From a virus, in IMG/VR virus record IMGVR_UViG_3300045988_084596, positions 121,930-146,360 of that record: DNA of 24,431 nucleotides. One strand, given 5' to 3'. This document shows, one piece after another, positions 241 through 24,184 of the stretch; positions within the stretch are counted from its first letter, which is position 1; each line of letters opens with the position of its first letter. A program made the position numbers and the translations under genes. The notes below the pieces were generated by a model. It saw nothing but the letters and a program-made list of their open reading frames with translations, searched no databases and was not told the origin of the DNA.

Positions 241-774
241 ATGGCGAAACACATGGTAAAATGTTTTTACTGTGGAGAAGTATTTGATGCATCAACCACC
301 CCATACGTTAAACCAAACTCAAGACGTTACGCTCATAAAACTTGTGCGCAAACGGCAGAAGAAAATAAAACTCAAGAAGAAAAAGATAAAGAATTATTAG
401 AAAAATATATAAAGGATTTATTTGGAATTAATTGTATCTCCCCAAAAATTAAAAAACAAATAGAAACTTTTAAAAAAGATAAAAATTATTCATATACAGG
501 GATATATAAAACATTAAAATATTTTTTTGAGATAAAAGGAAATTCTATTGAAAAGGCCAATGGTGGAATTGGTATTGTTCCTTTTGTTTATGATGAAGCA
601 TATCTATATTGGAGAGCATTGTGGGAAGCAAGAGAAAGAAATGAGCAGGTAGATATAAAAGAATTTATTTTGCCTGTAAGAGAAGTTCATATAGAGCCTC
701 CTCAGCGACAACCAATGAAACATATACGAAAGCTATTTACTTTCTTAAATGAGGAGGAAACACATGAAGAGTAA
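241..774 (+). CDS. zinc-ribbon protein (CxxC...HxxC); first gene of the replication operon, possibly a replication initiator or helicase loader
   Basis: 177-aa intact ORF with no in-frame TAG, RBS AAAGGAG. N-terminal C-x2-C...H-x3-C motif. Ends TAA and overlaps the helicase start by 11 nt. Confidence 0.6.
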   Translation: MAKHMVKCFYCGEVFDASTTPYVKPNSRRYAHKTCAQTAEENKTQEEKDKELLEKYIKDLFGINCISPKIKKQIETFKKDKNYSYTGIYKTLKYFFEIKGNSIEKANGGIGIVPFVYDEAYLYWRALWEARERNEQVDIKEFILPVREVHIEPPQRQPMKHIRKLFTFLNEEETHEE

Positions 775-2302
775 CTATGTAGATACAGCAGCAATTACTC
801 AAATAATTGGGTGTGTATTTAATAATGCCTCTATTCTCGATGATGCAGATAAATATATAATTCATGAAGATGATTTTCAAGAGGATTTTCACAAAATTAT
901 CTTTGGGAGTATCTATAATATTCATCTAACAGGCAGTCAAGTCAATATTGATGCAATTATAGATTATTTAGCGAATAGACCCAAATTTGATGCTATATTT
1001 AAACAAAATAAAGGTGTAGATTATCTTCTTGAAGCATCACAAAACGCTCGATAGGATACTTTTAATTACTACTATAATAGATTAAAAAAATTTACTCTAT
1101 TAAGGGCATATAATAATTTTGGCCTTGATGTAACCTATCTTTACGATCCAAATAATATTCTTGATACTAAAAAGAGACAAATGCAAGAAGATTGGTTAGA
1201 TAATACAAGTTTAGTTGAAATAGCTCATGCTATTGATGTAAAAATAGATGAAATCAAGAGTAAATATATTGAAGATGATTTAGGATTAGGGTATCAAGCC
1301 GGAGACGGAATCGACGATTTAATCAGTGATTTAGAACAACATCCAGAAGTTGGTATTCCTTTATATGGCCCATTGATTAATACAGTAACAAGAGGCGCAA
1401 GATTGCGAAAATTTTATTTGCGGTCAGCTGCTACAGGAACTGGAAAAACTAGATCAATGATTGCAGATGCTTGTAATTTTGCGTGTAATGAGATCTATCA
1501 TGATCAATTTGGCTGGATTAAAAACGGAACTTCTCAACCAACTTTGTTTATCGCGACAGAGCAAGATAAAGGAGAAGTGCAAACTATGATGTTAGCATTT
1601 CTTTCTGATGTAAATGAAGAACATATCTTGAATGGCCAATATTTTGATGGAGAAAAGGATCGAGTTCTCAAAGCCGCGGAAATTATTAAAAGAAGTCCGA
1701 TTTGGATTGAAGAATTGCCGGATTTTTCTTTGCAAGATGTAGAAAATAAGATAAAAAAGAATATCCGTGAACATGAAGTTAAGTATGTTTTATTCGATTA
1801 TTTACAAACATCTCTCAAGATTCTTGAAGAAATTAGTAAGAAATCTGGCGGAGTTAAATTAAGAGAAGATAATATCTTATTCATGCTTTCCGCAAGATTA
1901 AAAGATTTAGCAAATAAATATGGTATATTCATTATGTCTGCAACTCAATTAAATGCAGATTATTAGAATAGTGAAACACCAGATCAAAATTTGTTGCGTG
2001 GAGCTAAAAGTATTGCAGATAGAATTGATGTTGGCATGATTCTTCTTGGAGTTACAGATGAAGATTTGGTAAAACTTGATCCAATACTTGATAGCAATAA
2101 AAATCTTCTTCGTCCTAATTTAAAATTATCTATTTATAAGAATAGACGAGGATCATATAAAGGAGTTTACCTATGGTGTTCAGCAAATTTAGGTACTTGT
2201 CGTATATTACCACAATTCTGTACTAATTGGAGACATGAAATGATTAGTATTGAAGATATTAGAGTAATTGTAGATGAAGGTCCTGCGGCATGGGAAAAAT
2301 AA
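764..2302 (+). CDS. dnaB: DnaB-family replicative DNA helicase; one gene, with in-frame TAG at 1052 and 1964
   Basis: ORF-track pieces 749-1054, 1181-1966 and 1991-2302 are all in frame 2 and are separated only by TAG. N-terminal DnaB domain; Walker A SAATGTGKT; C-terminal KNRRG motif. RBS GGAGG 7 nt before ATG 764. Ends TAA. Confidence 0.85.
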
Positions 2303-2497: not shown

Positions 2498-3601
2498 ATG
2501 TCACGCTATTATGATAAAGATGAACTAAAAGGAAAATTAGAGTTAGAACAAATTTATGATTTAATTGAAGCATGGGGCGGTGAGCCTGAATATGTAGATG
2601 GTGGGCTCATCTCCCAAACTATATGTCATAATCTTCCAGGAGAGGGATCAAGAAAGTTATATTATTACGAAAATACAAAACTTTTTAGATGTTATACTGG
2701 ATGTATAGATCCTACTTTTGATATATTTGATTTATGTATAAAGGTTAAAAAAAAGCAAGAAGGTAAAAAGTGGGAACTATATAATGCTATGGATTATATA
2801 GCTGGATATTTTGGTTTTGATGGAATAGAACTAGAAGATGAAGAACAAGAATTAGAAGATTGGGATATCTTTAAAAGACATAATATTCAGTTACCAAAAC
2901 CTAAACAGCCTATTTGCTTGAAGGAATATAATCCGATTATTCTTACTCGATTTTCTTATCCTAGAATTGCTGGATGGGAAGCAGAAGGAATCTTACCCGA
3001 GGTTAGTAAAAGAAATTTTATTGGGTATTATCCGGGAGGAGGACAAATAACAATTCCTCACTTTGATATTAATAATAGATTAGTAGGAATTAGGGGAAGA
3101 ACATTATCTTCTGAAGATGCAGAAAGATATGGAAAATATAGACCTCTTATGGTGAACAGACAATTATATAATCATCCTTTAAGTATGAATTTATATAATT
3201 TAAACCATAGCAAAGAAAATATAAGAAAAGTAAAAGCTGCAATTATATTTGAATCTGAAAAGAGTTGTCTTATGTATCAGTCTTACTATGGGTACGATAA
3301 TGATATATCTGTAGCTTGTTGTGGAAGTAGTATATCTAGTTATCATATAGATTTACTTAAATCTTTAGGAGTTAATGAAATCATAGTTGCTTTTGATAGA
3401 CAATTTGTCGAAATTAGCGATGATGAATTTAAGAGATTGAAAGCAAAGTTAATTCATATATATAACAAATATAGTAAGAATGTACGCATATCTGCTATCT
3501 TTGACAAACGAATGATTTTGCCATATAAAGCAAGTCCTATAGACAAGGGACCGCAGATTTTTGAAGAGTTACTAAATGAAAGGATAATTCCTTATGAGTA
3601 A
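2498..3601 (+). CDS. dnaG: DnaG-like DNA primase (CHC2 zinc finger plus TOPRIM)
   Basis: CHN...FRCYTGC zinc-binding motif near the N-terminus. TOPRIM-like IIFESEKSC...VAFDRQF acidic motifs. 367-aa intact ORF, ends TAA. Confidence 0.8.
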   Translation: MSRYYDKDELKGKLELEQIYDLIEAWGGEPEYVDGGLISQTICHNLPGEGSRKLYYYENTKLFRCYTGCIDPTFDIFDLCIKVKKKQEGKKWELYNAMDYIAGYFGFDGIELEDEEQELEDWDIFKRHNIQLPKPKQPICLKEYNPIILTRFSYPRIAGWEAEGILPEVSKRNFIGYYPGGGQITIPHFDINNRLVGIRGRTLSSEDAERYGKYRPLMVNRQLYNHPLSMNLYNLNHSKENIRKVKAAIIFESEKSCLMYQSYYGYDNDISVACCGSSISSYHIDLLKSLGVNEIIVAFDRQFVEISDDEFKRLKAKLIHIYNKYSKNVRISAIFDKRMILPYKASPIDKGPQIFEELLNERIIPYE

Positions 3602-3881: not shown

Positions 3882-5633
3882 TTGGAATATTCATTAATTA
3901 ACCCAAGAAATTAGGATTATAGTGCTTTAGAGTAGGTATTAGTTAATAGAGGTATTAAATATGGTGATATATAGCATTATTTAACAGTATCAGAAAAAGA
4001 TAATTTATCTCCCTTACTTCTTAATAATATTGAAAGCGCTGCTAAGCTAATTATTAAGCACATTTTAAAAGATGATTCTTATATCTATGTCTAGGTAGAT
4101 AGCGACTGCGATGGTTACACCTCTTCTGCATTATTGCTAAATTATCTTCATGCGCAGTTTCCCTCTGCAATTAACAAGTTTGTTTATAACTTCCATTCTG
4201 GTAAAATTCATGGAATAAAACCAGAATTAATCCCCGATAATATTTCTCTTGTTATTGCACCGGATTCAAGCTCTAACGACTATCAAGAGCATGAAGAATT
4301 GGCTAATCGCGGAATTGATGTATTAGTTATAGACCATCACTTAGCTGATAAAATATCTGAATACGCCTGTGTTGTTAATAATCAGTTATGCGATTATCCA
4401 ACAAAATCGTTATCTGGTGTAGGAGTAGTTTATAAATTGTGTTAGTATATGGATAGTATTTGCGGAACTGCCTATGCGGACAATTACCTTGATATTGTAG
4501 CCACCGGTCTTGTAGGAGATATGATGGATATTAGAGATTTTGAAACTCATTATCTTATTCAATAGGGGCTACAGAGGTCAAGTCTCCGCAATCCTTTTAT
4601 TAAAGGTATGGCTGATAAAAATGCTTATTAGTTAGGCAGAGGAGATTTATCTCCTATTGGAGTAGCGTTTTATATTGTTCCTCTTGTTAATGCCATTACT
4701 CGTATGGGTACTCAAGATGAAAAGTAGATTTTATTTGAAAGTATGCTTGAATGGAAAGCATATGATCTTATTCCTTCTACTAAACGAGGATGTAAAGGGC
4801 AAGAGGAAACTAGATTAGAGCAAGCATTAAGAGTTTGCACTAATGTTAAGAATCGTTAGACTAGAACTAGAGATGCCGAAGTTGAACAAATAGAAAATAT
4901 TATTCAAGAAAAAAATCTATTATAGCATAAACTTTTAGTAATTAAACTAGAAGATATGTAGGTTGATAGAGGTATTACTGGTTTAATTGCTAATGAATTA
5001 ATGAGTAAGTATAAGCGCCCCGTTATTCTCTTATCAAAGACTGTAAACAATGAACAAGATGCTTGGGAGGGATCAGCTAGAGGATACGAAAAGTCTAAAT
5101 TAAATGATTTTAGACAATTTGTAAGAGATTCAAATTTAGTCTTTTTAGCTGAGGGGCACGCAAATGCTTTTGGCTTTGGCATTTATGAAAAAGATTTTGA
5201 AGATTTTATTATATGGTCAGACAATCAATTAAAAGATATAGAATTTTCACCAAGCTATAAGGTAGATTTTATTTACTCTATGTCAGATATTAATTCTAAA
5301 GATATATTAGAACTAGGTAATTCTAAGTATCTTTGGGGATAGAATATCGACGAACCGTTAATTGCGGTAGAAAATGTTGCAGTAACAAATGACATGATTA
5401 GTCTTATGTCACGAGACAAGAATCCTACTTTGAAGATTCAATTACCAAATGGAGTTACTTGCATCAAGTTTAAATCAAGCGAAGAGGAGCTAGAAGATTT
5501 ATCTAGCGAATTAGGTTGCGTGAGTATAAATTTGATTGGTAAACCAGAAGTAAATAGATACTTCGGTAGTGTGACACCACAAATTATTATTACAGATTAT
5601 GAAATTATAAGTAGATAGAAGTATTACTTTTAA
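3882..5633 (+). CDS. DHH/DHHA1 phosphoesterase, RecJ-like single-strand DNA exonuclease; 13 in-frame TAG codons
   Basis: A single frame-0 reading from the TTG at 3882 (after the in-frame TAA at 3876) to TAA 5631-5633 has no TAA or TGA. TAGs lie at 3912, 3933, 3972, 4092, 4443, 4563, 4629, 4725, 4857, 4923, 4959, 5340 and 5616. Motifs: YIYV(Q)VDSDCDGYTS (DHH motif I), VIDHHL (DHH), GHANAFGFG (DHHA1). Start codon uncertain. Confidence 0.75.
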
Positions 5634-5672: not shown

Positions 5673-6440
5673 ATGAGACGTTTTATGAGTATTATACTAA
5701 GTTTAATCATTTTATTATCTATAATGTGTAGTTGCAATAGTCCATTTATTTCTGTTGCATCAGCATACTCAGTTCAGTATAACAGCAATACAAGTTATAC
5801 CTATAATGATTTAGATACATTGATTGAGCTTATTGCGGAACAAATTTCTAACATGAATGCCGCACATCAAATGGCTGATGCCGCTAGGCAATTAGGTTAT
5901 TCTGAAAACCATGATGTTATTGAGTTAGCCGTAAATGAATATGATAAAGCTAATGAATTAAGACAATCCTATCAAAACGTATATGATAACCTCATGGAAC
6001 ACTGGCATCAAAAGGAAAAAGAGTACCCAGTAGCAACATATATATGGAGCTATTTCAAAGACCTAGGTTATAATAATCAAGTGTGTGCTGGAATACTTGG
6101 TAATATAATGACTGAAGTTGGTGGTAATACCTTGAACATTCAATATGAATTAGGTAATTCTTCATATTATGGGATGTGTCAATGGAATAAGGCGTATTCT
6201 GAGGTTTGGGGAGCCTCATTAGAAGAGCAATGCAATTATTTGGAAAATACTATTGAATATGAATTTAATACATTCGGTCATGCCTATAAGAGAGGGTTTG
6301 ATTATGAAGATTTTCTAAATATGACAAGTATAACTGATGCTGCTTTAGCGTTCGCGAAATGCTATGAAAGATGCAGTTCTGGAAGTTATACAGTACGACA
6401 AAATAATGCGATAATCGCATATAATTATTTTGTAAGTTAA
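5673..6440 (+). CDS. secreted or lipoprotein-like protein with a phage-tail-lysozyme-like (Phage_lysozyme2-type) domain
   Basis: N-terminal hydrophobic signal with Cys (IILLSIMCSC). GILGNIMTEVGG...YGMCQWN motif recalled as typical of phage tail lysozyme domains. RBS AAAGGAGG. No in-frame TAG. Ends TAA. Confidence 0.55.
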   Translation: MRRFMSIILSLIILLSIMCSCNSPFISVASAYSVQYNSNTSYTYNDLDTLIELIAEQISNMNAAHQMADAARQLGYSENHDVIELAVNEYDKANELRQSYQNVYDNLMEHWHQKEKEYPVATYIWSYFKDLGYNNQVCAGILGNIMTEVGGNTLNIQYELGNSSYYGMCQWNKAYSEVWGASLEEQCNYLENTIEYEFNTFGHAYKRGFDYEDFLNMTSITDAALAFAKCYERCSSGSYTVRQNNAIIAYNYFVS

Positions 6441-6523: not shown

Positions 6524-6784
6524 ATGGAAGAATTAAAACAAACTATAAAATTTTTAGATTCTATTCAAATAGATAAGTATATAATAGGTTATATGGATAT
6601 ACACGATATTATGGATAGAATAGAAGATGATTATGGCGCATTTTTAGAAGATCATCCTATTTTTGAAGGATATGTTTTTAATTGGATGACTTCTGATGAA
6701 TTTGCTGATTATTTAAGGAAAAAGGGTTATAGAGTTCAAGAAAATATTAGTTATGAGGTTTGGAAAAATGGAATTAACTCGTAA
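6524..6784 (+). CDS. hypothetical protein (86 aa)
   Basis: RBS GAGGT then ATG 6524. Acidic small protein. Ends TAA and overlaps the next gene. Confidence 0.55.
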   Translation: MEELKQTIKFLDSIQIDKYIIGYMDIHDIMDRIEDDYGAFLEDHPIFEGYVFNWMTSDEFADYLRKKGYRVQENISYEVWKNGINS

Positions 6785-7949
6785 ACAAGAGGAAGGATTG
6801 CGCATTGCAATAGATAGATATAATCACAACGAGCCCTATACTGTAATAGCGGGTTACGCAGGTACTGGAAAAAGTACCTTGATTAATTTTATTATAGCAG
6901 CTCTTGAGGTAGATCCAGAAGAAGAAGTTGCATATATTACTTTTACAGGGAAAGCCTCAGAGGTATTGCGAGAAAAAGGTTGCCATAATGCTATGACCGC
7001 GCATAAATTGTTATATTATAGTAAGCAAATGCCAAATGGTAAATTTTTCTATAAACCAAGGACTGTTCTTGAAAAGCCTTATAGAGTAATTGTTGTAGAT
7101 GAAGTAAGTATGCTTCCTAAAGATATGTGGGATTTGCTTTTAAGTCATAATATCTATGTAATAGCTTGCGGAGATCCTTTTCAGATTCCTCCAATAGATA
7201 AGAAACAAGATAATCATATTTTGGATAATCCACATATTTTTCTTGATGAAGTAATGCGTCAAGCAAAAGAAAGTGATATTATTTGCCTTAGCATGGATAT
7301 TAGAGAAGGAAAGAGATTATCTCCTTTTAGCGGTCATGATGCTCAAGTTTTTAAGAAAAATGATCTGTGCGATGGAATGTATTTTTGGGCAGACTAGATT
7401 CTTGTATCTACCAATAAAAGTAGACATGATATTAATTCTTATATTAGAGATGATTTAGGCAGAGGATTTGAGCCAGAAATAGACGATAAGATTATTTGTT
7501 TGCGGAACTGTTGGGATACTTGCTCTGAAAAACATGAAAATCCACTCATAAATGGCTCTGTTGGATATATTAAAACTAAAAGAATGGAATCTATTGATTA
7601 TATCCTCGCTGGAAAGTTAGTATCTGCTCCTGTTTTATTTGCAGATATTGAAACAACAAATGATACATATAGAGAAGTTGGTATTGACTATACCGCTTTA
7701 ACTACTGGAGAAAAGTTTTTTACTCCTCAACAAGAATATTTAATTAGGAGAAATAAAGAAAATCCAGATCTCCCTATTGAGTTTAATTTTGGTTATGCAA
7801 TTACTGGACATAGAGCGCAAGGTTCACAATGGGATAAGGTTTTAGTATTAGAAGAATCATTTCCATTTGATAAAATTGAACACGCTAGATGGATATATAC
7901 TACAGTTACAAGGGCCATTGAAAAACTTACATTGATATTAAAGAATTAA
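6768..7949 (+). CDS. SF1B RecD/Dda-like ATP-dependent DNA helicase; one in-frame TAG at 7395
   Basis: ORF pieces 6753-7397 and 7500-7949 are in frame 0 with a stop-free bridge at 7398-7499. Walker A GYAGTGKST; DEVSM Walker B; motif VI-like GHRAQGSQWDKV. Ends TAA. Confidence 0.8.
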
Positions 7950-7992: not shown

Positions 7993-10900
7993 ATGGGTAT
8001 GTACTTTAACAATCATGCGCATACGGAGTTTAGTAACTTGCGTTTGCTAGATTGTATAAATAAACCTGAGGCACTGATTGATAAAGCTATTGAAGTCGGA
8101 TTGACGGGAATTGCTATCACAGACCACGAAAGCCTTTCGGCGCATATGAGAGTAAATAAATATGCAAAGAAAATTAGGGAGCAAAATCCCGATTTTACGA
8201 TTGCATTAGGAAATGAGATTTATTTAACTGATACAAGAGATTTAGGACAAAAGTATTATCACTTTATCCTAATCGCGAAAGATAAAGAAGGATATAGAGG
8301 ACTAAAGGAGTTATCCTCTATTGCTTGGATGAATGGATATTATGACCGTAGAATGGAACGCGTTCCTTTGCTTAAATCTGAGCTTAAAGATGTAATGCAG
8401 AGATTTAAGGGTCATATTATTGGGACTACTGCTTGTATTGGTGGAGAACTTGGTAGTTCCATTTTAAATCTTCATAATTGTGAAGAAATTAAAGATGAAA
8501 TTAACGCACAGAGATACCATAATCAAATTGTTGATTTTATGACATTCTGCATTGATGTATTTGGTAAAGATGATTTTTACATTGAATGTGCTCCCGCTTC
8601 TTATCCAGATCAAATTATCGCAAATAAAAGAATGTTAAGTATCTCTGAGGCTTTTAATATAAATATGTGTATTGGAACAGATGCGCATTACTTAACAAAA
8701 GAAGATAGATATGTTCATAAAGCGTATCTTAATTCTAAAGGTGGAGAACGAGAGGTTGATAGTTTCTATGAGTTTACTCATTTGATGGATGAACAAGAAA
8801 CTAGAGAACTTCTTAGATTGAGCTATGACGAAGGCATAATTGATTGGATTTTTAAATGCTCAAACGAAATGAAAGATAAAATTGAATTTTATTCTCTTGA
8901 ACGTCATCAATCAATTCCAGAAGTAGAAGTAACAGATTATAAAAAAGGGTTTGTACCATATCAGTGGGAAGATAAATATCCTGTTCTATCTAGTTTGATT
9001 TGGAGCGATAATATTCAAGAAAGATATTGGGTAAATGAATGTATTATTGCTTTGCAGAAAAAAGGTTTATTTAATGATCCTAGATATCTTGAAAGATTAG
9101 AAGAAGAAGCAAGAGTAAAGAGAGTGATTGGAGAAAAACTAGGAACTTGTATGTTTGCATACCCAAATACTCTAAAACATTATGTAGATTTGTTCTGGAA
9201 TTGCGGAAGTACCGTAGGTGCAGGGCGAGGATCAGCTTGTGCTGCTTTGAACCATTATCTTCTTGGAATCACTCAACTAGATCCCATTGAATGGGATCTT
9301 CCTTTCTGGCGCTATATTAACGATGAAAGAACTGAACTTGGTGATATTGACCTAGATTTGGCACCATCAAAAATTCAAAAGATTTTCGCGGAGATTAGAA
9401 AAGAACGAGGAGAACTTGGCTTAGTACAAGTTTGTACTTTTGGCACAGAAGGAACTAAATCTGCGATTTTAACAGCTTGTCGAGGCTATCGTTCAGAAGA
9501 TTATCCTGATGGAATTGATGTAGATATGGCTCAATATATGAGTTCTCTTATTCCACAAGAAAGAGGTTTCTTATGGCCTATTGAGGATGTAGTTAATGGT
9601 AATCCGGAAAAAGGCCGTAAACCTGTTACGGTTTTTGTAAATACTGTGAATCAGTATCCTGGATTATTAGATATTATTACTAGAATACAAGGACTAGTAA
9701 ATAAACGTTCAAGTCACGCTTCTGGAGTAATCTTATTTGATCAAAATATTTTTGATACAGCCGCGGTAATGAGAACTCCAAAAGGAGCATTAATTACTCA
9801 ATGGGATCTTCATGATCAAGAAGCCGCTGGATCTGTCAAGTACGATTTCTTGCTTACAGCAGTACAGGATATTATTATTCAAACTATTGAGCTATTGCAA
9901 AAAGATGGCGCTATTGAAAAAGATTTAACATTGCGTGAAGTCTATAATAAATACCTTCATCCATCTGTCCTCCCACAAGACGATAAAAAAATGTGGGATG
10001 CTCTTGCCAATGGAGATGTTCTTGGCTGTTTCCAATTTGATTCTAGTGTTGGCGCTCAAGCAGCAAAAAAGATTAAGCCTCAAAATCCGCACGAAATGGC
10101 GGACGCTAATGGATTGATGAGACTAATGACTGCGGAAAAGGGTGCAGAAACTCCAATGGAGAAGTATGTTCGTTTTAAAAATAATATTTCTCTTTGGTAT
10201 AAAGAAATGGATCAGTAGGGTTTAACAAAAGAAGAACAAAAAATTCTTGAACCTCATTTCTTACGTTCTTATGGTGTGCCTCCCAGCCAAGAACAAATGA
10301 TGACTATGCTTCAAGACCCAAATATTTGCGGATTTACGTTAGCTGAAGCTAATACTGCAAGAAAAATAGTTGGTAAGAAGCAAATGAACAAAATTCCAGA
10401 GTTGAGAGAAAAAGTTTTAAATTCTGCGAAATCTCCAGCATTGGGGCAATATGTATGGAATTATGGCATCGGTCCACAAATGGGCTATAGTTTCTCTATT
10501 ATCCATGCTCTTGCTTATAGCTTTATTGGTATGCAAACTCTTTATCTTGCTACCCATTTTAATCCAGTATATTGGAATACAGCATATCTTATTGTCAATA
10601 GCGGTGCCATTAATGAAGAAGAAGGAGAACAATCAGATTATACCAAGATTGCTAAAGCCATTGGAGAAATTCGTAATGCTGGTATAAAAGTGTCTTTGGT
10701 TGACATTAATCATTCTGATTTTGGTTTTAAACCAGATGTTGAGCATAATCAAATCTTGTTTGGTTTAAAAGGGTTATCTAATGTAAACAATGATTTAATT
10801 AAAACCATTGTTGATAATCGCCCCTATGTATCTTTAATTGATTTCTTTAATAAAGTACATCCAAATAAACAAGCAATGATTTCTTTAATTAAGGGCGGAG

Positions 10901-12449: not shown

Positions 12450-12881
12450 ATGTATTGTATATATTTGCATAGAAATAAAATAAATAATAAAGTATATATT
12501 GGACAAACCAAATTTGGAGATAATCCAAATAAGAGATGGCAAAATGGTAATGGATACAAGGAAAATATATCTTTTTATTATGATATATAGAAATATGGAT
12601 GGAATAATTTTGAACATATAATTTTAGAAAATAATCTTACGCTAGATGAAAGTAATAAGTTAGAAAAGCAATATATATCATATTATAATTCTACCAATCC
12701 CTCTGTTGGATATAATACAATGCCTGGTGGAGGAAAAAGCGAAAAGATTCAAGGTCCAAGTGATGCATTGAACTCATTCATTTCTTTATACTATAATGAT
12801 AGTAATGGAATATTAAAAAGCAAAAAGACTTTAGAATCTTTACAAAGGGAAAAGTAGAGATATATACAAAAAACGAGATAA
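12450..12881 (+). CDS. GIY-YIG family homing endonuclease (free-standing); 2 in-frame TAG (12588, 12855)
   Basis: MYCIYLHRNKINNKVYIGQT...R...KYGWNNFEHIILE follows the GIY...YIG...R...KYG..NFEF.ILE pattern. RBS AAAGAGGTGG. Ends TAA. Confidence 0.7.
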
Positions 12882-12896
12882 GGAGTTGTTTTATAT

Positions 12897-15110
12897 ATGC
12901 TTCAAGTAAGAAAGAGAAATGGTATCCTAGTACCATTTGATAAAGAGCGTATTATTAACGCTATAAATAAAGCTTTCATCGAAGTTGATGGGGCATTATA
13001 TGAAGATGATACAGCAAATGATATTGCAGATGAAATTAAGTATGCTGTAAAAACATCTGATGATGTAGTTTCCGTTGAAAAAATTCAAGATATGGTTGAA
13101 GATTATCTTATGAAATCTGAACGTAGAGACGTAGCCAAAGAATATATTAGATATAGATATAAAAGAGAGATTGCAAGAAAAGGCCAAGATGATTTTATTA
13201 AAGCCTTTTCTGCAAAGATTCAAGGTTCTGATATTGAAAACCAAAATGCCAATGTAGATGAAATGTCATTTGGCGGACGAGTTGGAGCAGCGTCAGATTT
13301 ACAAATGAAAAGGTATGCTCTTGATTATTTAGTTTCTAATAAATCACGAGTAAATCATGAAAATAATAGAATTTATATTCATGATTTAAATGCTTATGCT
13401 GTAGGTATGCACAACTGTCTTTCTATTCCTTTCGATGATTTACTTGAAAAGGGATTTAATACTAGACAAACTGATGTGCGCCCCGCGGGTTCTGTAAATA
13501 CCGCTTTCCAGCTTGTTGCAGTTATTTTCCAACTACAGAGTTTACAACAATTTGGTGGAGTATCTGCTACTCACTTGGATTGGACTATGGTTCCATATGT
13601 ACGAAAGAGTTTTTATAAACATTTTAATGATGGACTTGTTTATGTTGAACATACTTTATCTATGGATGATAGATTAAATTCTACTCTTCCTATTGATAGT
13701 GAAATATATAAAGAATACCCAAATGCGTATCAATATGCTATAGATATGACAGAAAGAGAGACTCATCAAGCAGTTGAAGGTATGTATCATAATTTAAATA
13801 CTTTGTAGTCTCGATCTGGAAATCAATTACCTTTTACTTCTATTAACTATGGTACTTGTACTCTTCCAGAAGGGAGAATGGTAATTAAGGCTTTACTTGA
13901 AGTTTCTATTGAGGGACTTGGTAGACTTCACAAAACTTCTATTTTCCCTTGTGGCATCTTTCAATGTGCAAAAGGAATTAATCGAGCTCCTGGTGATCCC
14001 AATTATGATTTATTCAGAATCGCTTTAAAATCTACTGCTTTAAGATTATATCCCAATTATGCCAATGTTGATTGGAGCGGAAATGCAGGATATGATAAAA
14101 ATGATCCTAAGACATACTTCTCTACTATGGGTTGTAGAACTGCGAATGGGTTCGACATTAATGGATTAGGCCAACAAAAAGATGGTCGTGGAAATATTTG
14201 TCCAGTAACAATTATTATGCCAACATTGGCTATGGAGGCTAAAAAGTATTGGGAAACCATGCCAAGCGGAGACGACTCTTGTGTTGAAACTTTTATTGAT
14301 TTCTTAGATCAAGCTATAAATGATGCTAAAGATATGCTTCTTGAGAGATTTGAGTATATTTGTTCTCAACCCGCGGAATCCGCGAAATTCATGTATGAAA
14401 ACGGCTTAATGGCTGGATATGATGGAATTTCTACTCGAAGCGCTTTAAAACATGGAACTTTAGCTATGGGACAACTTGGATTAGCTGAAACTCTACAAAT
14501 TCTTATTGGTAAAGACCATACCACAGAAGAGGGAATGAAGTTAGCTAAGCGTATTGAGCAATTATTCAAAGATAGATGTGCTGAGTATAAAGAAAAATAT
14601 CAACTAAATTTCGGAGTATATTTTACTCCAGCCGAGAATTTATGTTATACAGCTATGACTAAATTTAAAAATAAATACGGAATTATTCCAAATGTAAGTG
14701 ATAAAGAATACTTTACTAACTCTATTCATGTTCCTGTATGGAAACAAATGTCCCCTTTTGATAAGATTGATATTGAATCCCAATTAACTGGCTACTCTTC
14801 TGCCGGTTGTATCACTTATGTTGAACTTGATAGTGGTATGGAGAATAATATTGATGCATTAGAGACTTTAGTTAATTATGCTATGAATCATGATATTCCA
14901 TATTTTGCAATTAATGTCCCTAATGATACTTGCTTAAAATGTGGTTATACTGGTGAATTTAATGATAAGTGTCCAATGTGTGGTAGTGAAGATATTCAAC
15001 AGTTAAGACGCGTAACAGGATATCTTACTGGAAATTATAAAACAGCCTTTAATAAAGGAAAAGTAGCCGAAACACAAGCGAGAATTAAACACGTGGGGTA
15101 TATGGAATGA
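12897..15110 (+). CDS. nrdD: anaerobic ribonucleoside-triphosphate reductase (class III RNR); one in-frame TAG at 13806
   Basis: ORFs 12897-13808 and 13878-15110 are in frame 0. N-terminal ATP cone. C-terminal Cys4 zinc site CLKCGY...CPMCGS. Glycyl-radical motif RRVTGYL. RBS AAGGAG. Ends TGA. Confidence 0.9.
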
Positions 15111-16155: not shown

Positions 16156-16500
16156 ATGACTTTATACGAGCTAAATCAAGCGGGATATGCCTCCCTTCCA
16201 AAAATGACAAAGGCTGAATTAGAGAAAGCTAAAGGAAATATTATCACATTCTTAGATTCCAATGATTCTAGATATTATATGATGCTTAATCACGATAATA
16301 AATATTTTACTTTATTTACCTATGAAAACGATGTAAATAAAAATAAAATGGCAAGCGAGATTATTTCTGTTTCTAAGACACTTGGAGAAATCAAGGCAAT
16401 AGAGATAAATGGAAATATTGTAGAAATTTGGATTTTACATGGAGAGAAATGTGATATGTATGCGTTCTTTGATTATACAAAAGGGGTGATATAGGTATGA
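16156..16500 (+). CDS. hypothetical protein; TAG at 16492 read through to TGA 16498-16500
   Basis: The ORF track ends at TAG 16492-16494. Two codons later the real TGA forms an ATGA overlap with the next gene start, the same coupling seen at nrdD/nrdG and dut/ruvC. Confidence 0.55.
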
Positions 16501-17008: not shown

Positions 17009-17575
17009 ATGAGTGTATATTTTGAGAAAGTAAGTCGCTTTAGTGACATTGATCTACCTATTCCAACCCGCGCGACCGCCAATTCCGCAGGTTATGATTT
17101 CGTAGTCGCAGAAGATACAGTTCTACCTCCAATGAATTTTTTAACTTCTAAAATTCAAGACCATATTTTTGAAAAAGATAGTGACAAGGATTTTTATGGA
17201 TTTGTGAGCCCTTTTACTCTTGATGATATGGCCAATCTTACTAAAGAATTAAAGTCTAAGATTACTCTTGTATCAACAGGAATGAAATGTCATTTAAATC
17301 CTGGTCAATATCTTGAATTAAGTGTTCGCAGTTCTACTCCTCTTAAACATTGGATTATTTGCGGAAATAGCGTTGGTATTATTGATGCCGATTATTGTGA
17401 TAATCCAGATAATGAAGGAGAGATCTTTTTCCAGCTTGTTAATTTATCTCCTTTTGCTATTCAGTTAAAGCGTGGAGATAAAATTGGACAAGGAATTATT
17501 AAGAGTTATCAAATTACTGATGACGATAATGCAACTGGAGAAAGACTCGGTGGATTCGGAAGCACATCTAAATGA
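17009..17575 (+). CDS. dut: dUTP diphosphatase (trimeric dUTPase)
   Basis: dUTPase motifs: RATANSAGYDF; GIIDADY; C-terminal RLGGFGSTS. RBS GGAGGAATAAT. Ends TGA. Confidence 0.8.
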   Translation: MSVYFEKVSRFSDIDLPIPTRATANSAGYDFVVAEDTVLPPMNFLTSKIQDHIFEKDSDKDFYGFVSPFTLDDMANLTKELKSKITLVSTGMKCHLNPGQYLELSVRSSTPLKHWIICGNSVGIIDADYCDNPDNEGEIFFQLVNLSPFAIQLKRGDKIGQGIIKSYQITDDDNATGERLGGFGSTSK

Positions 17576-18051
17576 GTAATCTATTATCACTCGATTAGAG
17601 TTCGAAGATTACCGGATATGCGGTCTTTGAAGATAATAAGTTAAAAACTTTTGGTAAATTTGCTGTTGAAGATAATAATATAGATACTAGATTAGTAAAA
17701 ATAAGATAGAAGATTAAAGATCTTATTGAATAGTATCATATAGATGAAGTAGTTTTTGAAGATATATAGTAGTAGAATAATATTTCTAATAATGTTTAGA
17801 CTTTTAAGATTTTAGCAGAAGTATATGGGGTAGTTTCTGAATTACTAGAACAAGAAAAAATTCCCCATTCTTCTATTTTAGCAGTAACATGGAAATCTTT
17901 ATTGGGTATAAAAGGAAAAACTCGACCAGAGTAGAAAAAAAATGCTCAGAATTATGTTTTTTATAATTATGGGGAAAAACCCACACAGGATGAAAGTGAC
18001 GCTGTTTGTATCGGCCTTGCGCATATTAAATAGCATCAATGCGCTTGGTAA
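17572..18051 (+). CDS. ruvC: RuvC-like Holliday junction resolvase (phage or lactococcal type); 9 in-frame TAG including TAG-TAG-TAG at 17767-17775
   Basis: ATGA overlap with the dut stop. MSNLLSLD(Q)SSKITGYAVFED. EVVFEDI(QQQ)NN. C-terminal ESDAVCIGLAHI acidic catalytic motif. No ORF-track entry because of TAG fragmentation. Ends TAA 18049-18051. Confidence 0.75.
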
Positions 18052-18070
18052 TATTGGTCTAAATAAAAAA

Positions 18071-18120
18071 ATCCTCCTTTCTTAACTTTAAAATAATTTG
18101 AGAAGTTAAGAAAGGAGGAT
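18071..18120. terminator. perfect 18-bp-stem hairpin, bidirectional terminator; its 3' arm contains the SD of the next gene
   Basis: atcctcctttcttaactt (18071-18088) pairs with aagttaagaaaggaggat (18103-18120). A-run upstream, T-run downstream. Confidence 0.6.
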
Positions 18121-18123
18121 TTT

Positions 18124-18555
18124 ATGTTTGCTTTTATTACAGAACATATAGTAGAAATTCTTTTTGGTCTAATTTCCGCCGGAGCGTTGGCTTTTTGTAG
18201 ATACTTATATAAATAGTTAATGGCATATAAAAAAATGTTATAGGAAAAAGAAAATAATGATATAGTAGAACTTATTGACGAAAAATTAAAACCAATAGTA
18301 GAAGATATTGAAGAATTAAGAACATATATACGGAAAATAGAAGATAAAGAAAGACAAGATTTAACATTAATTATAGCTTCATATAGATTCAGACTTGTTT
18401 AGCTATGTAAAATATATATAAAGCAAGGATATATGACTCAAGATTAGTATGATCAACTAACAGAATTTTACAAACTATATCATTCTTTAGGTGGTAATGG
18501 ACAAGCTAAAGAATATTATGAGAAAACCATGGAGTTAGAAATTAGATCAGAATAA
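18124..18555 (+). CDS. membrane-anchored hypothetical protein (N-terminal TM, helical C-terminal domain); 4 in-frame TAG
   Basis: ATG 18124 is 5 nt after the GGAGG embedded in the hairpin arm. A single frame runs to TAA 18553-18555. N-terminal FAFITEHIVEILFGLISAGALAF hydrophobic segment. Confidence 0.55.
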
Positions 18556-18560
18556 AAAAA

Positions 18561-18586
18561 ATGGGGAACTCACTTGAGTTCCCCAT
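18561..18586. terminator. bidirectional hairpin terminator between convergent + and - modules
   Basis: atggggaactc pairs with gagttccccat (11-bp stem, 4-nt loop), flanked by an A8 run (18553-18560) and cttcttt. It overlaps the last codons of the - strand gene. Confidence 0.6.
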
Positions 18587-22086: not shown

Positions 22087-22137
22087 ATTAATTCCTCCTT
22101 TATATTATATATAAAACAATAGGAAGATAATTTAACT

Positions 22138-22835
<698 letters not shown>

Positions 22836-23128: not shown

Positions 23129-23523
23129 GTTCGCACCTCCTACAAAATTATATATATCTATATATCATTTTCTGGAATTTTTTGGGCTTTAAAAGTTAAA
23201 CTATTTTCTTGTTGATTTATACACTAAATGCCTGAATTATTATATATATCTATATCTTTTATTGTTGGAGTTGGACAAATTATCTATTTGCCCTCATCGC
23301 TCAATACTCCAATTATATTTACTGTTTGAGTATTATTAGACCAAGCTGATGAATATAGAGTTATCAATTTAATAATAGGTTTAAGTGCAGAATTTGCTAA
23401 TATAGTATTGAACTCCTTTTCAGTTCCAGTAAACCCTCCTTCTTTAGCTGTTTCATAAGCAGATTTGCCGTTTAATCCAGGCTACCCTATTCCAGCAACC
23501 TTTTTCCCATTTACTTTTATCAT
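23125..23523 (-). CDS. tail-fibre-associated protein with GKSAYE...GF.GTE motif (132 aa); 5 in-frame TAG
   Basis: RBS GGAGGTAGT then ATG 23523. GKSAYETAKEGGFTGTEKEF motif, common in phage fibre and BppU-type proteins. The frame reads through the apparent AT-repeat intergenic region to TGA (rc 23125-23127). Confidence 0.55.
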
Positions 23524-23545: not shown

Positions 23546-24184
23546 TTAATCAATATTACCTCCAGTAGAAGTAATTGTAGCGGGACCAATAATTTTATAT
23601 GCTATAACTTGATAATTATTATTTATTAATATAGCTCCCAAACTTTCATATGCAGACTGAGGAGTAATTTTAAGTCCTGAAGAAGAACCTGCATTTATAG
23701 TTATAATACTATTTTTTATCACTTTATAATTATTTTTCTACACTACCCATACTGACATTGGCGCATTTTCATATTCTATTATTACAGTACATCCACTTAT
23801 ACCCCTCAATGATTCAAATATAATATCCACCGTTTCTATAGGGGTTTCTGTTGTAATCTATCCTATCTTATCTGCCATAGTTGAAAAACTATCGGTCGCC
23901 GCAGTTTCTACTCCTTTGTCAGTGACTGCGGTCGCTATTAGGGTTTTGCCCTCACTGACATCGGTAAAAAGCTCATCAATAGCTGATTGAACATTAGTGG
24001 CTTTCATACTTGAAGTTTCATTATTATATTCTATTGATGATGCAGTAAGATTTTCATTATCTTCTTCATCAAATTCAATAGTATAAGGTCCTAACCCTAA
24101 TGTTTCTCCCATTTCTGCGCTACCGCCTCCTGGTACGGTAATAGCATTTTGGTTTTTAACCTATCCAGTTAAAATACATTCCAT
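23546..24184 (-). CDS. tail fibre / receptor-binding protein (212 aa); 3 in-frame TAG
   Basis: RBS AAAGGAGAAAATATCT then ATG 24184. 24 codons upstream of ORF-track start 24112, and continuing through TAG 23858 to TAA 23546-23548. NVQSAIDELFTDVSEGKTLIATAVTDKGVETAATDSFSTMADKI resembles a conserved phage tail-fibre segment. Confidence 0.6.

Follow-up and report, generated by a model that had tools for sequence, protein, structure and literature searches.

Excess of in-frame TAG codons in the RecJ-like and RuvC-like nuclease genes of a recoded gut-phage replication module and its recurrence in related phages

Introduction

Reassignment of a stop codon has been proposed to regulate late genes in phages. 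In the model of Borges et al. (bioRxiv 10.1101/2021.08.26.457843), replication genes were variably recoded and mostly kept to the standard code, late genes were recoded, and the preferentially recoded families were lysis proteins, tail proteins and an intron endonuclease. Up to now, the evidence for recoding as a timer of late functions has come mostly from recoded structural and lysis blocks. That study was reportedly published in Nat Microbiol in 2022. Here we report on a 24,431-nt stretch of phage DNA (positions 121,930 to 146,360 of IMG/VR virus record IMGVR_UViG_3300045988_084596; this whole stretch is called the window below), in which two genes of the replication module, one for a RecJ-like nuclease of the DHH family (the DHH gene) and one for a RuvC-like resolvase (RuvC), were found to carry a load of in-frame TAG codons far above that of the genes around them.

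A nuclease has been described in such a setting before: in the Agate phages, a group I intron homing endonuclease lying in an early gene was preferentially recoded with TGA, which was read as delayed production (bioRxiv 10.1101/2021.08.26.457843). Borges et al. make no mention of RuvC, RecJ, Holliday, exonuclease or resolvases, and our literature search, of incomplete coverage, returned no paper treating RuvC or RecJ in a recoding context. In vivo, the RuvC of the lactococcal phages bIL66/67 introduces nicks at replication forks, and its expression is harmful; it could not be maintained in repair-deficient cells and is thought to debranch DNA prior to packaging (PMC3864405). The distantly related phage phAss-1 resembles the window in having the same replication module and TAG-to-Gln recoding (proposed Phassvirus group, PMC10607447, OQ749652); its description lists the recoded open reading frames (ORFs) and contains no per-gene density and no analysis of the RecJ-like or RuvC genes (PMC10607447).

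Results

TAG codons in the two nuclease genes

The window has 32.5% GC, and long ORFs were obtained across it only if TAG was taken as a sense codon. The standard code splits the genes for DNA polymerase III alpha (PolIII alpha), NrdD, DnaB, the DHH nuclease and RuvC, and reading through TGA did not repair them; intact ORFs and homologous proteins appeared only with TAG read-through. The TAG codons of the DHH and RuvC genes were aligned with invariant glutamine (Gln) residues of standard-code orthologues, so TAG is Gln in these genes. Judged from these reading frames and alignments, the phage uses code 15 (TAG-to-Gln); it comes from a large syntenic family of gut phages sharing the gene order DnaB, primase, RecJ-like, RecD, PolIII alpha, NrdD/G, dUTPase and RuvC. 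The two genes in question are:

3882-5633, plus strand: predicted RecJ-like DHH exonuclease gene; TTG start; 13 TAG in 583 sense codons
17572-18051, plus strand: predicted RuvC-like resolvase gene; 9 TAG in 159 codons

The TAG counts from which the original prediction started (DHH 13, RuvC 9, primase 0, PolIII 1, NrdD 1 and DnaB 2) were all reproduced exactly. To take out the effects of gene length and composition, TAG was also expressed as a share of all Gln codons, and it accounted for 13/28 (46%) of them in the DHH gene, 9/13 (69%) in RuvC and 13/173 (7.5%) in the 14 remaining plus-strand genes taken together. In tests that treat codons as independent, both genes differed strongly from these 14 genes, the Fisher p per codon being 7e-7 for the DHH gene and 1e-8 for RuvC, and the p per Gln codon 1.5e-6 and 4.5e-7, respectively. 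A Monte Carlo test of heterogeneity over the plus-strand module gave the same picture, as the observed value per codon was not equalled in any of 200,000 simulations and p was 3e-4 per Gln codon. The skew is gene-specific, as had been claimed, and is not produced by length, Gln content or composition, since it persists per Gln codon; a uniform TAG density was not seen.

The size of the difference needed some correction. A factor of more than 20 had been stated, and it was obtained when RuvC was set against the pooled rest (56.6 versus 2.7 TAG per 1000 codons) and when the DHH gene was set against PolIII, but the DHH gene exceeded the pooled rest by about 8-fold. Similarly, the figure of 0-2 TAG in the neighbouring genes was right as a count but concealed intermediate densities in short genes, namely 6-14 TAG per 1000 codons in gmk, the GIY-YIG gene, NrdG and the small genes g13 and g14. 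The TAG load across the module is graded and not binary. Some TAG codons of the short genes lie near the C-terminus; that of g14 (16492-16494, codon 113/115) is found two codons before the TGA stop, and since the g14 protein is near-identical whether this TAG is read as stop or as Gln, this codon does no harm and is best left out of any count of TAG that need suppression.

The late minus-strand genes of the window (holin, fibre-like and others) served as a second reference, with a mean of 16.5 TAG per 1000 codons and TAG at 27% of Gln codons. The predicted late-gene-like density of the two nuclease genes was confirmed, the DHH gene being at least level with the minus-strand genes (p = 0.07) and RuvC well in excess of them (p = 0.004). 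No difference between the gene classes was detected in the base before TAG or in the base after it.

It had also been claimed that DnaB, PolIII, NrdD and the RecD-like helicase, each with one or two TAG codons, require suppression from the start of infection. A need for suppression is reasonable for this clade, but it would have to exist only by the time these proteins are needed, which need not be at the onset of infection; all four genes were free of TAG in sister lineages with less recoding.

Identity of the two products and positions of the TAG codons

The product of the DHH gene matched the Pfam families DHH, DHHA1 and RecJ_OB, phrog_2484 ('RecJ-like ssDNA exonuclease', E = 2e-151) and, over residues 47-575 and hence nearly full length, the RecJ structure 8y30 in the PDB (E = 1e-24). 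The motifs of the DHH family (DxD, D, DHH, D and GH) were invariant in the orthologues (D73, D75, D77, D128, D151-H152-H153, D213 and G425-H426), and the protein is accordingly predicted from its sequence to be a RecJ-like, DHH-family exonuclease acting on single-stranded DNA (ssDNA). Its gene has TAG codons at 3912, 3933, 3972, 4092, 4443, 4563, 4629, 4725, 4857, 4923, 4959, 5340 and 5616, the first of which is codon 11, and no in-frame TAA or TGA. The TAG at codon 18 (3933-3935, 'LE-TAG-VL'; alignment column 21) was common to 5 of the 10 aligned recoded lineages and to phAss-1, and is the single TAG site of the DHH gene shared by five diverged lineages of the aligned set.

The RuvC product scored 34.3 bits with Pfam PF02075 (cut-off 22.2) and matched the resolvase families phrog_827 and phrog_159. 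A sequence search of the PDB with this protein gave no match, including none to the solved bIL67 RuvC at E <= 0.01. The acidic catalytic residues D8, E63, D140 and D143 were invariant in the alignment of orthologues, and a RuvC-like Holliday-junction resolvase is predicted. The gene has TAG codons at 17596, 17707, 17731, 17767, 17770, 17773, 17797, 17932 and 18031 and, again, no in-frame TAA or TGA. Its first TAG is codon 9; codon 8-9 was TAG in 11 of 21 TAG lineages, which is near the average TAG share. Codons 66-68 (17767-17775) are three TAG in tandem in the conserved 'FEDIQxQ' motif, where the orthologues have Q-x-Q, and TAG was found at the invariant Q columns 34, 94, 96, 158 and 163 of the alignment. 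Both genes are intact. Neither belongs with the late structural or lysis genes: their products are enzymes of DNA metabolism, and the genes are co-directional with and adjoin primase or dUTPase.

Recurrence in related phages

A search of IMG/VR with both proteins and their alignments yielded about 250 loci on gut and rumen-type phage contigs of 75-200 kb. These loci had the same gene order and comprised standard-code, TAG-recoded and TGA-recoded members. The gene calls in the relatives were homology-anchored but crude, and in the window clade the related loci cover about 35 kb of a genome of about 115-133 kb. It had been suggested that the orthologues be checked for the same skew, and this skew was found to recur in many related phages, as detailed below.

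For the DHH gene, clustering at 85% identity gave 24 lineages, and TAG occurred in the replication region of 18 of them. In 17 of these 18, TAG made up a higher share of the Gln codons in the DHH gene than in the pooled comparator genes (g01, DnaB, primase, g06, RecD, PolIII, gmk and NrdD); in one example, 4/23 Gln codons of the DHH gene were TAG as compared with 0/119 in the comparators. A stratified (Cochran-Mantel-Haenszel) analysis put the odds ratio at 6.9, and at 6.1 when the window clade was left out. Pooled over the lineages, the TAG share was 0.18 in DHH and 0.02-0.075 in every other gene family. TAG was found in 50 different columns of the DHH alignment over 10 lineages, mostly as singletons. 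The window and its relative L003 (98% identical) differed by four TAG flips in 583 codons, yet both have 13 TAG. As the positions are mostly lineage-specific, the gains were independent, and the load was not inherited as a block.

RuvC was compared in 26 recoded lineages, with counts taken from tblastn match coordinates. The median recoded share was 0.42 in RuvC versus 0.11 in the upstream plus-strand genes, being higher in 22 of the 26 lineages (Wilcoxon p = 3e-5). It also exceeded the 0.31 of the downstream late genes (higher in 17 lineages, lower in 6, p = 0.003). DHH and RuvC are both preferentially recoded gene families in the sense of Borges et al.

In lineages with TGA reassigned to tryptophan (Trp), RuvC had 4 TGA and 0 TGG, and g01, DnaB, primase, DHH, RecD, PolIII, gmk, NrdD, NrdG, g14 and dUTPase jointly had 0 TGA among about 50 Trp codons. 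Recurrence under TGA-to-Trp was thus observed for RuvC and was absent for DHH, and RuvC behaves alike under two independent code changes. The TGA-related loci are L189, L193, L195, L196, L197 and L223 (for example, L189 17990-18517). Separately, on the lightly recoded contig behind L027/L060, RuvC has a single Trp codon, for the conserved Trp of 'TWKS', and this codon is TGA; the large neighbouring genes have no TGA.

A third nuclease family, the GIY-YIG homing endonucleases scattered in the module, had a recoded share of 0.40 where TAG is reassigned and 0.75 where TGA is. In the relatives these genes were either free-standing or split NrdD or PolIII in the manner of an intron or homing element, and they were located at:

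L027, 5913-6530: GIY-YIG gene
L056, 7160-8008: GIY-YIG gene
L065, 2615-3295: GIY-YIG gene
L068, 824-1735 and 7156-7998: GIY-YIG genes

Gene layout and transcription context

The remaining genes of the window, in order, are:

First plus-strand gene, before DnaB, plus strand: g01
749-2302, plus strand: DnaB; 2 TAG in 517 codons
2319-2498, plus strand: small ORF; 0 TAG
2498-3601, plus strand: primase; 0 TAG in 367 codons
3594-3878, plus strand: Zn-finger protein; 0 TAG
5673-6440, plus strand: lysozyme-domain protein (g06); 0 TAG
6753-7949, plus strand: RecD-like helicase; 1 TAG in 398 codons
7993-11874, plus strand: PolIII alpha; 1 TAG in 1293 codons
11849 onward, plus strand: guanylate kinase (gmk); 2 TAG
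12450-12881, plus strand: GIY-YIG endonuclease; 2 TAG
12897-15110, plus strand: NrdD; 1 TAG in 737 codons
Between NrdD and dUTPase, plus strand: NrdG; 2 TAG
Between NrdG and dUTPase, plus strand: g13 and g14, small proteins; 1 TAG each
Before dUTPase, plus strand: two further small ORFs; 0 TAG
17009-17575, plus strand: dUTPase; 0 TAG
18124-18555, plus strand: g16b, small membrane protein with an N-terminal transmembrane segment; TAG at 4 of 9 Gln codons
18570-24184, minus strand: convergent late-type module, including unassigned genes besides the three below; 26 TAG in 1578 codons, 27% of Gln codons
21697-22086, minus strand: holin, in the late-type module
22138-22770, minus strand: serine recombinase / DNA invertase; GTG start, 4 TAG
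23546-24184, minus strand: fibre-like protein, in the late-type module

Both nuclease genes are set in tight strings. The primase gene overlaps the Zn-finger ORF by 8 nt, the end of the latter is separated from the DHH start by a 3-nt gap, and g06 starts 39 nt past the DHH gene; the RuvC ATG overlaps the dUTPase stop. Terminator-like sites were found neither between primase and DHH nor between DHH and g06, the nearest being at the 3' end of g06, and the strongest such site was at the convergent junction (18561-18586). A scan for sigma-70 promoters was uninformative, with 107 sites against 102 expected. DHH and RuvC are likely to be co-transcribed with TAG-free neighbours, and this apparent co-transcription would place the control at translation.

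Directly past the RuvC stop, a perfect 22-bp hairpin (18068-18123, plus strand) followed by a U-run was observed, with a free energy of -32.6 kcal/mol (z = -6.6). Its 3' arm holds the AAGGAGG Shine-Dalgarno sequence and the spacer of the next ORF, g16b (ATG at 18124), and the hairpin could act as a terminator and, at the same time, as an occluder of translation. The g16b orthologues in relatives were likewise recoded.

Some further features of the window were noted. The lysozyme-domain protein at 5673-6440 has a 'phage tail lysozyme' domain (PF18013) and a signal- or lipoprotein-like N-terminus, and lies within the replication module; its 255 codons include no TAG, which is the opposite of the usual reports on lysis enzymes in recoded phages. 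The serine recombinase/DNA invertase gene adjoins fibre-like genes and is flanked by an imperfect 30-nt inverted repeat (83% complementary; 22110-22139 and 23192-23221) that reaches the 3' part of the neighbouring gene, and the g24/g25 region varies among relatives. This region may be an invertible host-range segment; the repeats are weak for AT-rich DNA. As regards PolIII alpha, it was only 44% identical between L004/L018 and the window, where DnaB, RecD and NrdD were 73-82% identical.

Suppressor tRNAs and the relative phAss-1

The tRNA scan of the window gave no tRNA gene. When the scans were extended to about 130 related loci, suppressor tRNAs were found in two non-window lineages only: L076, a TAG lineage, has two tandem tRNA(CUA) genes upstream in the module (899-1048, plus strand), and L078, a TGA lineage, has a tRNA(UCA) gene (9620-9714, minus strand) about 1 kb downstream of RuvC. 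A degenerate pattern scan of IMG/VR for suppressor tRNAs returned six unrelated contigs and none of the contigs of the window clade.

The window as a whole had no megablast match among GenBank phages. The relatives found by tblastn with the DHH and PolIII proteins had at most about 41% identity (SPbeta yorK/yorL, Enterococcus and Geobacillus phages, and phAss-1). As the sole complete relative in GenBank, phAss-1 was compared over its replication block only, the crude ORF caller being noisy in the tRNA region and given to merging some ORFs. Its RecJ-like gene contains 6 TAG, and its PolIII, RecD, primase, RuvC and NrdD genes contain none. It has three tRNA(CUA) genes, two of them directly upstream of NrdD (62445-62610); in phAss-1, ARAGORN names tRNA(cta) genes tRNA-Pyl and tRNA(tca) genes tRNA-SeC. 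It differs from the window phage in that the DHH protein is 36% identical, the genome has 44.5% GC and RuvC is without TAG. The GenBank record OQ749652 (L028-L030) is annotated in the standard code, and the RecJ-like gene appears there as three hypothetical proteins.

Discussion

We consider it probable that both nucleases belong to a translation class made after the code switch, with the TAG load gating their output at translation. Most genes of the module are nearly free of the reassigned stop, so that unmodified host translation could make them, and the RecJ-like and RuvC genes, joined in relatives by GIY-YIG genes, carry it at late-gene density or above. Full-length products require 13 TAG to be decoded in DHH and 9 in RuvC. 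As long as release factor 1 (RF1) is active, ribosomes would halt at codon 11 of DHH or codon 9 of RuvC; decoding of TAG would be achieved by a phage suppressor tRNA(CUA) such as those of the relatives phAss-1 and L076. With a read-through probability p at every TAG, the yield of full-length protein would be about p^n for n codons. At p = 0.5, a one-TAG gene would give 50% full-length protein, RuvC 0.2% and DHH 0.01%, and at p = 0.95 the last two would rise to 63% and 51%. Genes with 9-13 TAG would thus show a steep late switch-on or a low dose, and genes with 1-2 TAG an almost linear response, by which the nucleases would be delayed and sharpened relative to DnaB, PolIII and NrdD. The likely benefit would be that a debranching endonuclease able to nick forks and a 5'-3' ssDNA exonuclease are kept off replicating DNA until concatemers are processed and packaged. 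That premature nuclease activity could be harmful, as the original prediction held, is plausible for RuvC, since fork nicking and harm on expression are known for phage RuvC enzymes (PMC3864405), and the rationale is weaker for the RecJ-like enzyme.

A stronger form of this proposal takes the number of TAG or TGA codons per gene as a selected, tunable device for both delay and dose, set gene by gene in polycistronic early operons and used repeatedly, under two code changes, as a safety catch on nucleases (RuvC, RecJ-like and GIY-YIG); we offer it tentatively, as a possibility that we would not bet on. Were it true, nuclease genes should be among the first to be recoded when a lineage starts changing its code, and they may indeed be among the earliest.

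The timer idea gains from the gene-specific skew, its recurrence in relatives and the behaviour of RuvC under TGA-to-Trp. Several observations weigh against it. In TGA lineages the DHH gene is unrecoded, with 0 TGA among its 5-7 Trp codons, and in phAss-1 RuvC has 0 TAG where DHH has 6, so that a delay of nucleases is no universal rule. The short metabolic genes gmk and NrdG have an intermediate TAG load without an obvious reason for delay, and because PolIII, DnaB, NrdD and RecD need 1-2 read-throughs in this clade, the switch would not be strictly late. Scans of the window and of about 35 kb of flanking sequence from close relatives gave no suppressor tRNA. The lineages compared are kin, and the family-level p-values are optimistic for that reason.

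The serious rival, which predicts much of the same pattern, is passive: AT-biased mutation (CAG to TAG, TGG to TGA) would fill the genes that tolerate the reassigned codon, those needed early or in quantity would be purged of it, scarce enzymes with no early role would drift to the equilibrium level, and the load would mark an expression class or cut the dose and would be no evolved timer. This account, which we regard as rather unlikely, fits the intermediate loads of the short metabolic genes, the rapid turnover seen in the four flips between the window and L003 in 583 codons, and the lack of an obvious class difference in the base after TAG; the pooled TAG share of 0.18 for DHH lies between those of early (0.02-0.075) and late (about 0.30) genes, as it would expect, and the unrecoded DHH of TGA lineages and RuvC of phAss-1 suit it as well. 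It accounts less readily for a RuvC load above the late-gene mean (p = 0.004 in the window, p = 0.003 over the lineages), for TGA at 4/4 Trp codons of RuvC in several TGA sub-lineages, for a DHH TAG site common to lineages as distant as 36% identity, or for a trait common to three unrelated nuclease families. These points lean towards selection, although none is decisive.

Two other explanations have far less in their favour. The original prediction had offered as an alternative that both nuclease genes were recently imported by horizontal transfer, the donor being a phage with heavier recoding, and the region is certainly mosaic: the DHH protein of L001 is 100% identical to that of the window as against 95% for DnaB and 91% for PolIII, and in a clade with DHH at 65% identity PolIII is just 44% identical. 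Both genes, however, occupy the same syntenic position in every lineage, standard-code ones included, their TAG positions are mostly lineage-specific, and the proposed check of their codon adaptation against the rest gave ordinary values, with an unremarkable GC content at third positions and a correlation of non-Gln relative synonymous codon usage with the replication-gene pool of 0.92 (DHH) and 0.82 (RuvC), like that of size-matched neighbours. Import is very improbable on these grounds and is effectively ruled out. Still less credible, to the point of being negligible, is the view that the two are decaying pseudogenes or that their TAGs are sequencing or assembly artefacts. Both genes do fall into fragments in the standard code, but their frames are broken by TAG only (22 TAG, 0 TAA and 0 TGA), TAG stands at conserved Gln, all catalytic motifs are intact and the same counts were obtained in independent contigs from other samples.

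For the control at translation that we propose, this family provides a cleaner natural experiment than recoded blocks do, with single genes coded like late genes lying inside tight standard-code strings. Replication of the skew over about 20 diverged lineages, and for RuvC over two reassignments, argues that the pattern tracks what a gene does and neither its ancestry nor its place in the genome. The fork-nicking resolvase and the RecJ-like exonuclease are specific targets, and the yield of about p^n is a quantitative prediction of how the number of recoded codons would set delay or dose. In practical terms, calling genes in the standard code mis-annotates recoded nuclease genes as fragments, as in the GenBank record of phAss-1.

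The logic and the test used here are those of Borges et al., namely the share of the recoded codon among the Gln or Trp codons of each gene family across related genomes, and the recoding of the GIY-YIG genes agrees with their intron endonuclease. The difference is that the genes described here encode nucleases of core DNA processing with a permanent, syntenic place in the replication module, and that for RuvC the trait is seen with TAG reassigned as well as with TGA reassigned. In the block-wise dual coding of crAss-like phages (Mgcod, bioRxiv 10.1101/2022.06.29.495998), too, a portion of the genome can be read in the standard code, the rest requiring reassignment of a stop codon; the parts described there are contiguous multi-gene blocks, whereas here single genes of late-type coding are found within tight same-strand strings of standard code. 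The RuvC of bIL67 belongs to the same enzyme family. Like bIL66 RuvC, T4 endonuclease VII and T7 endonuclease I, it removes branched DNA ahead of packaging, the role envisaged here for the RuvC of the window. To our knowledge, these phages use the standard code and control the resolvase by other means. In Streptomyces, the bldA tRNA, which reads TTA codons, is a limiting decoding tRNA that gates translation of a defined gene set. The likeness lies in a codon with a limiting decoding tRNA gating a gene set; the difference is that bldA involves a sense codon and one tRNA, and here a stop codon is contested with a release factor and is present in many copies per gene, which would give a steep response. 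The timer idea itself is not new; what is new here is RuvC and the RecJ-like gene as a well-replicated example of it, and the convergence under two reassignments.

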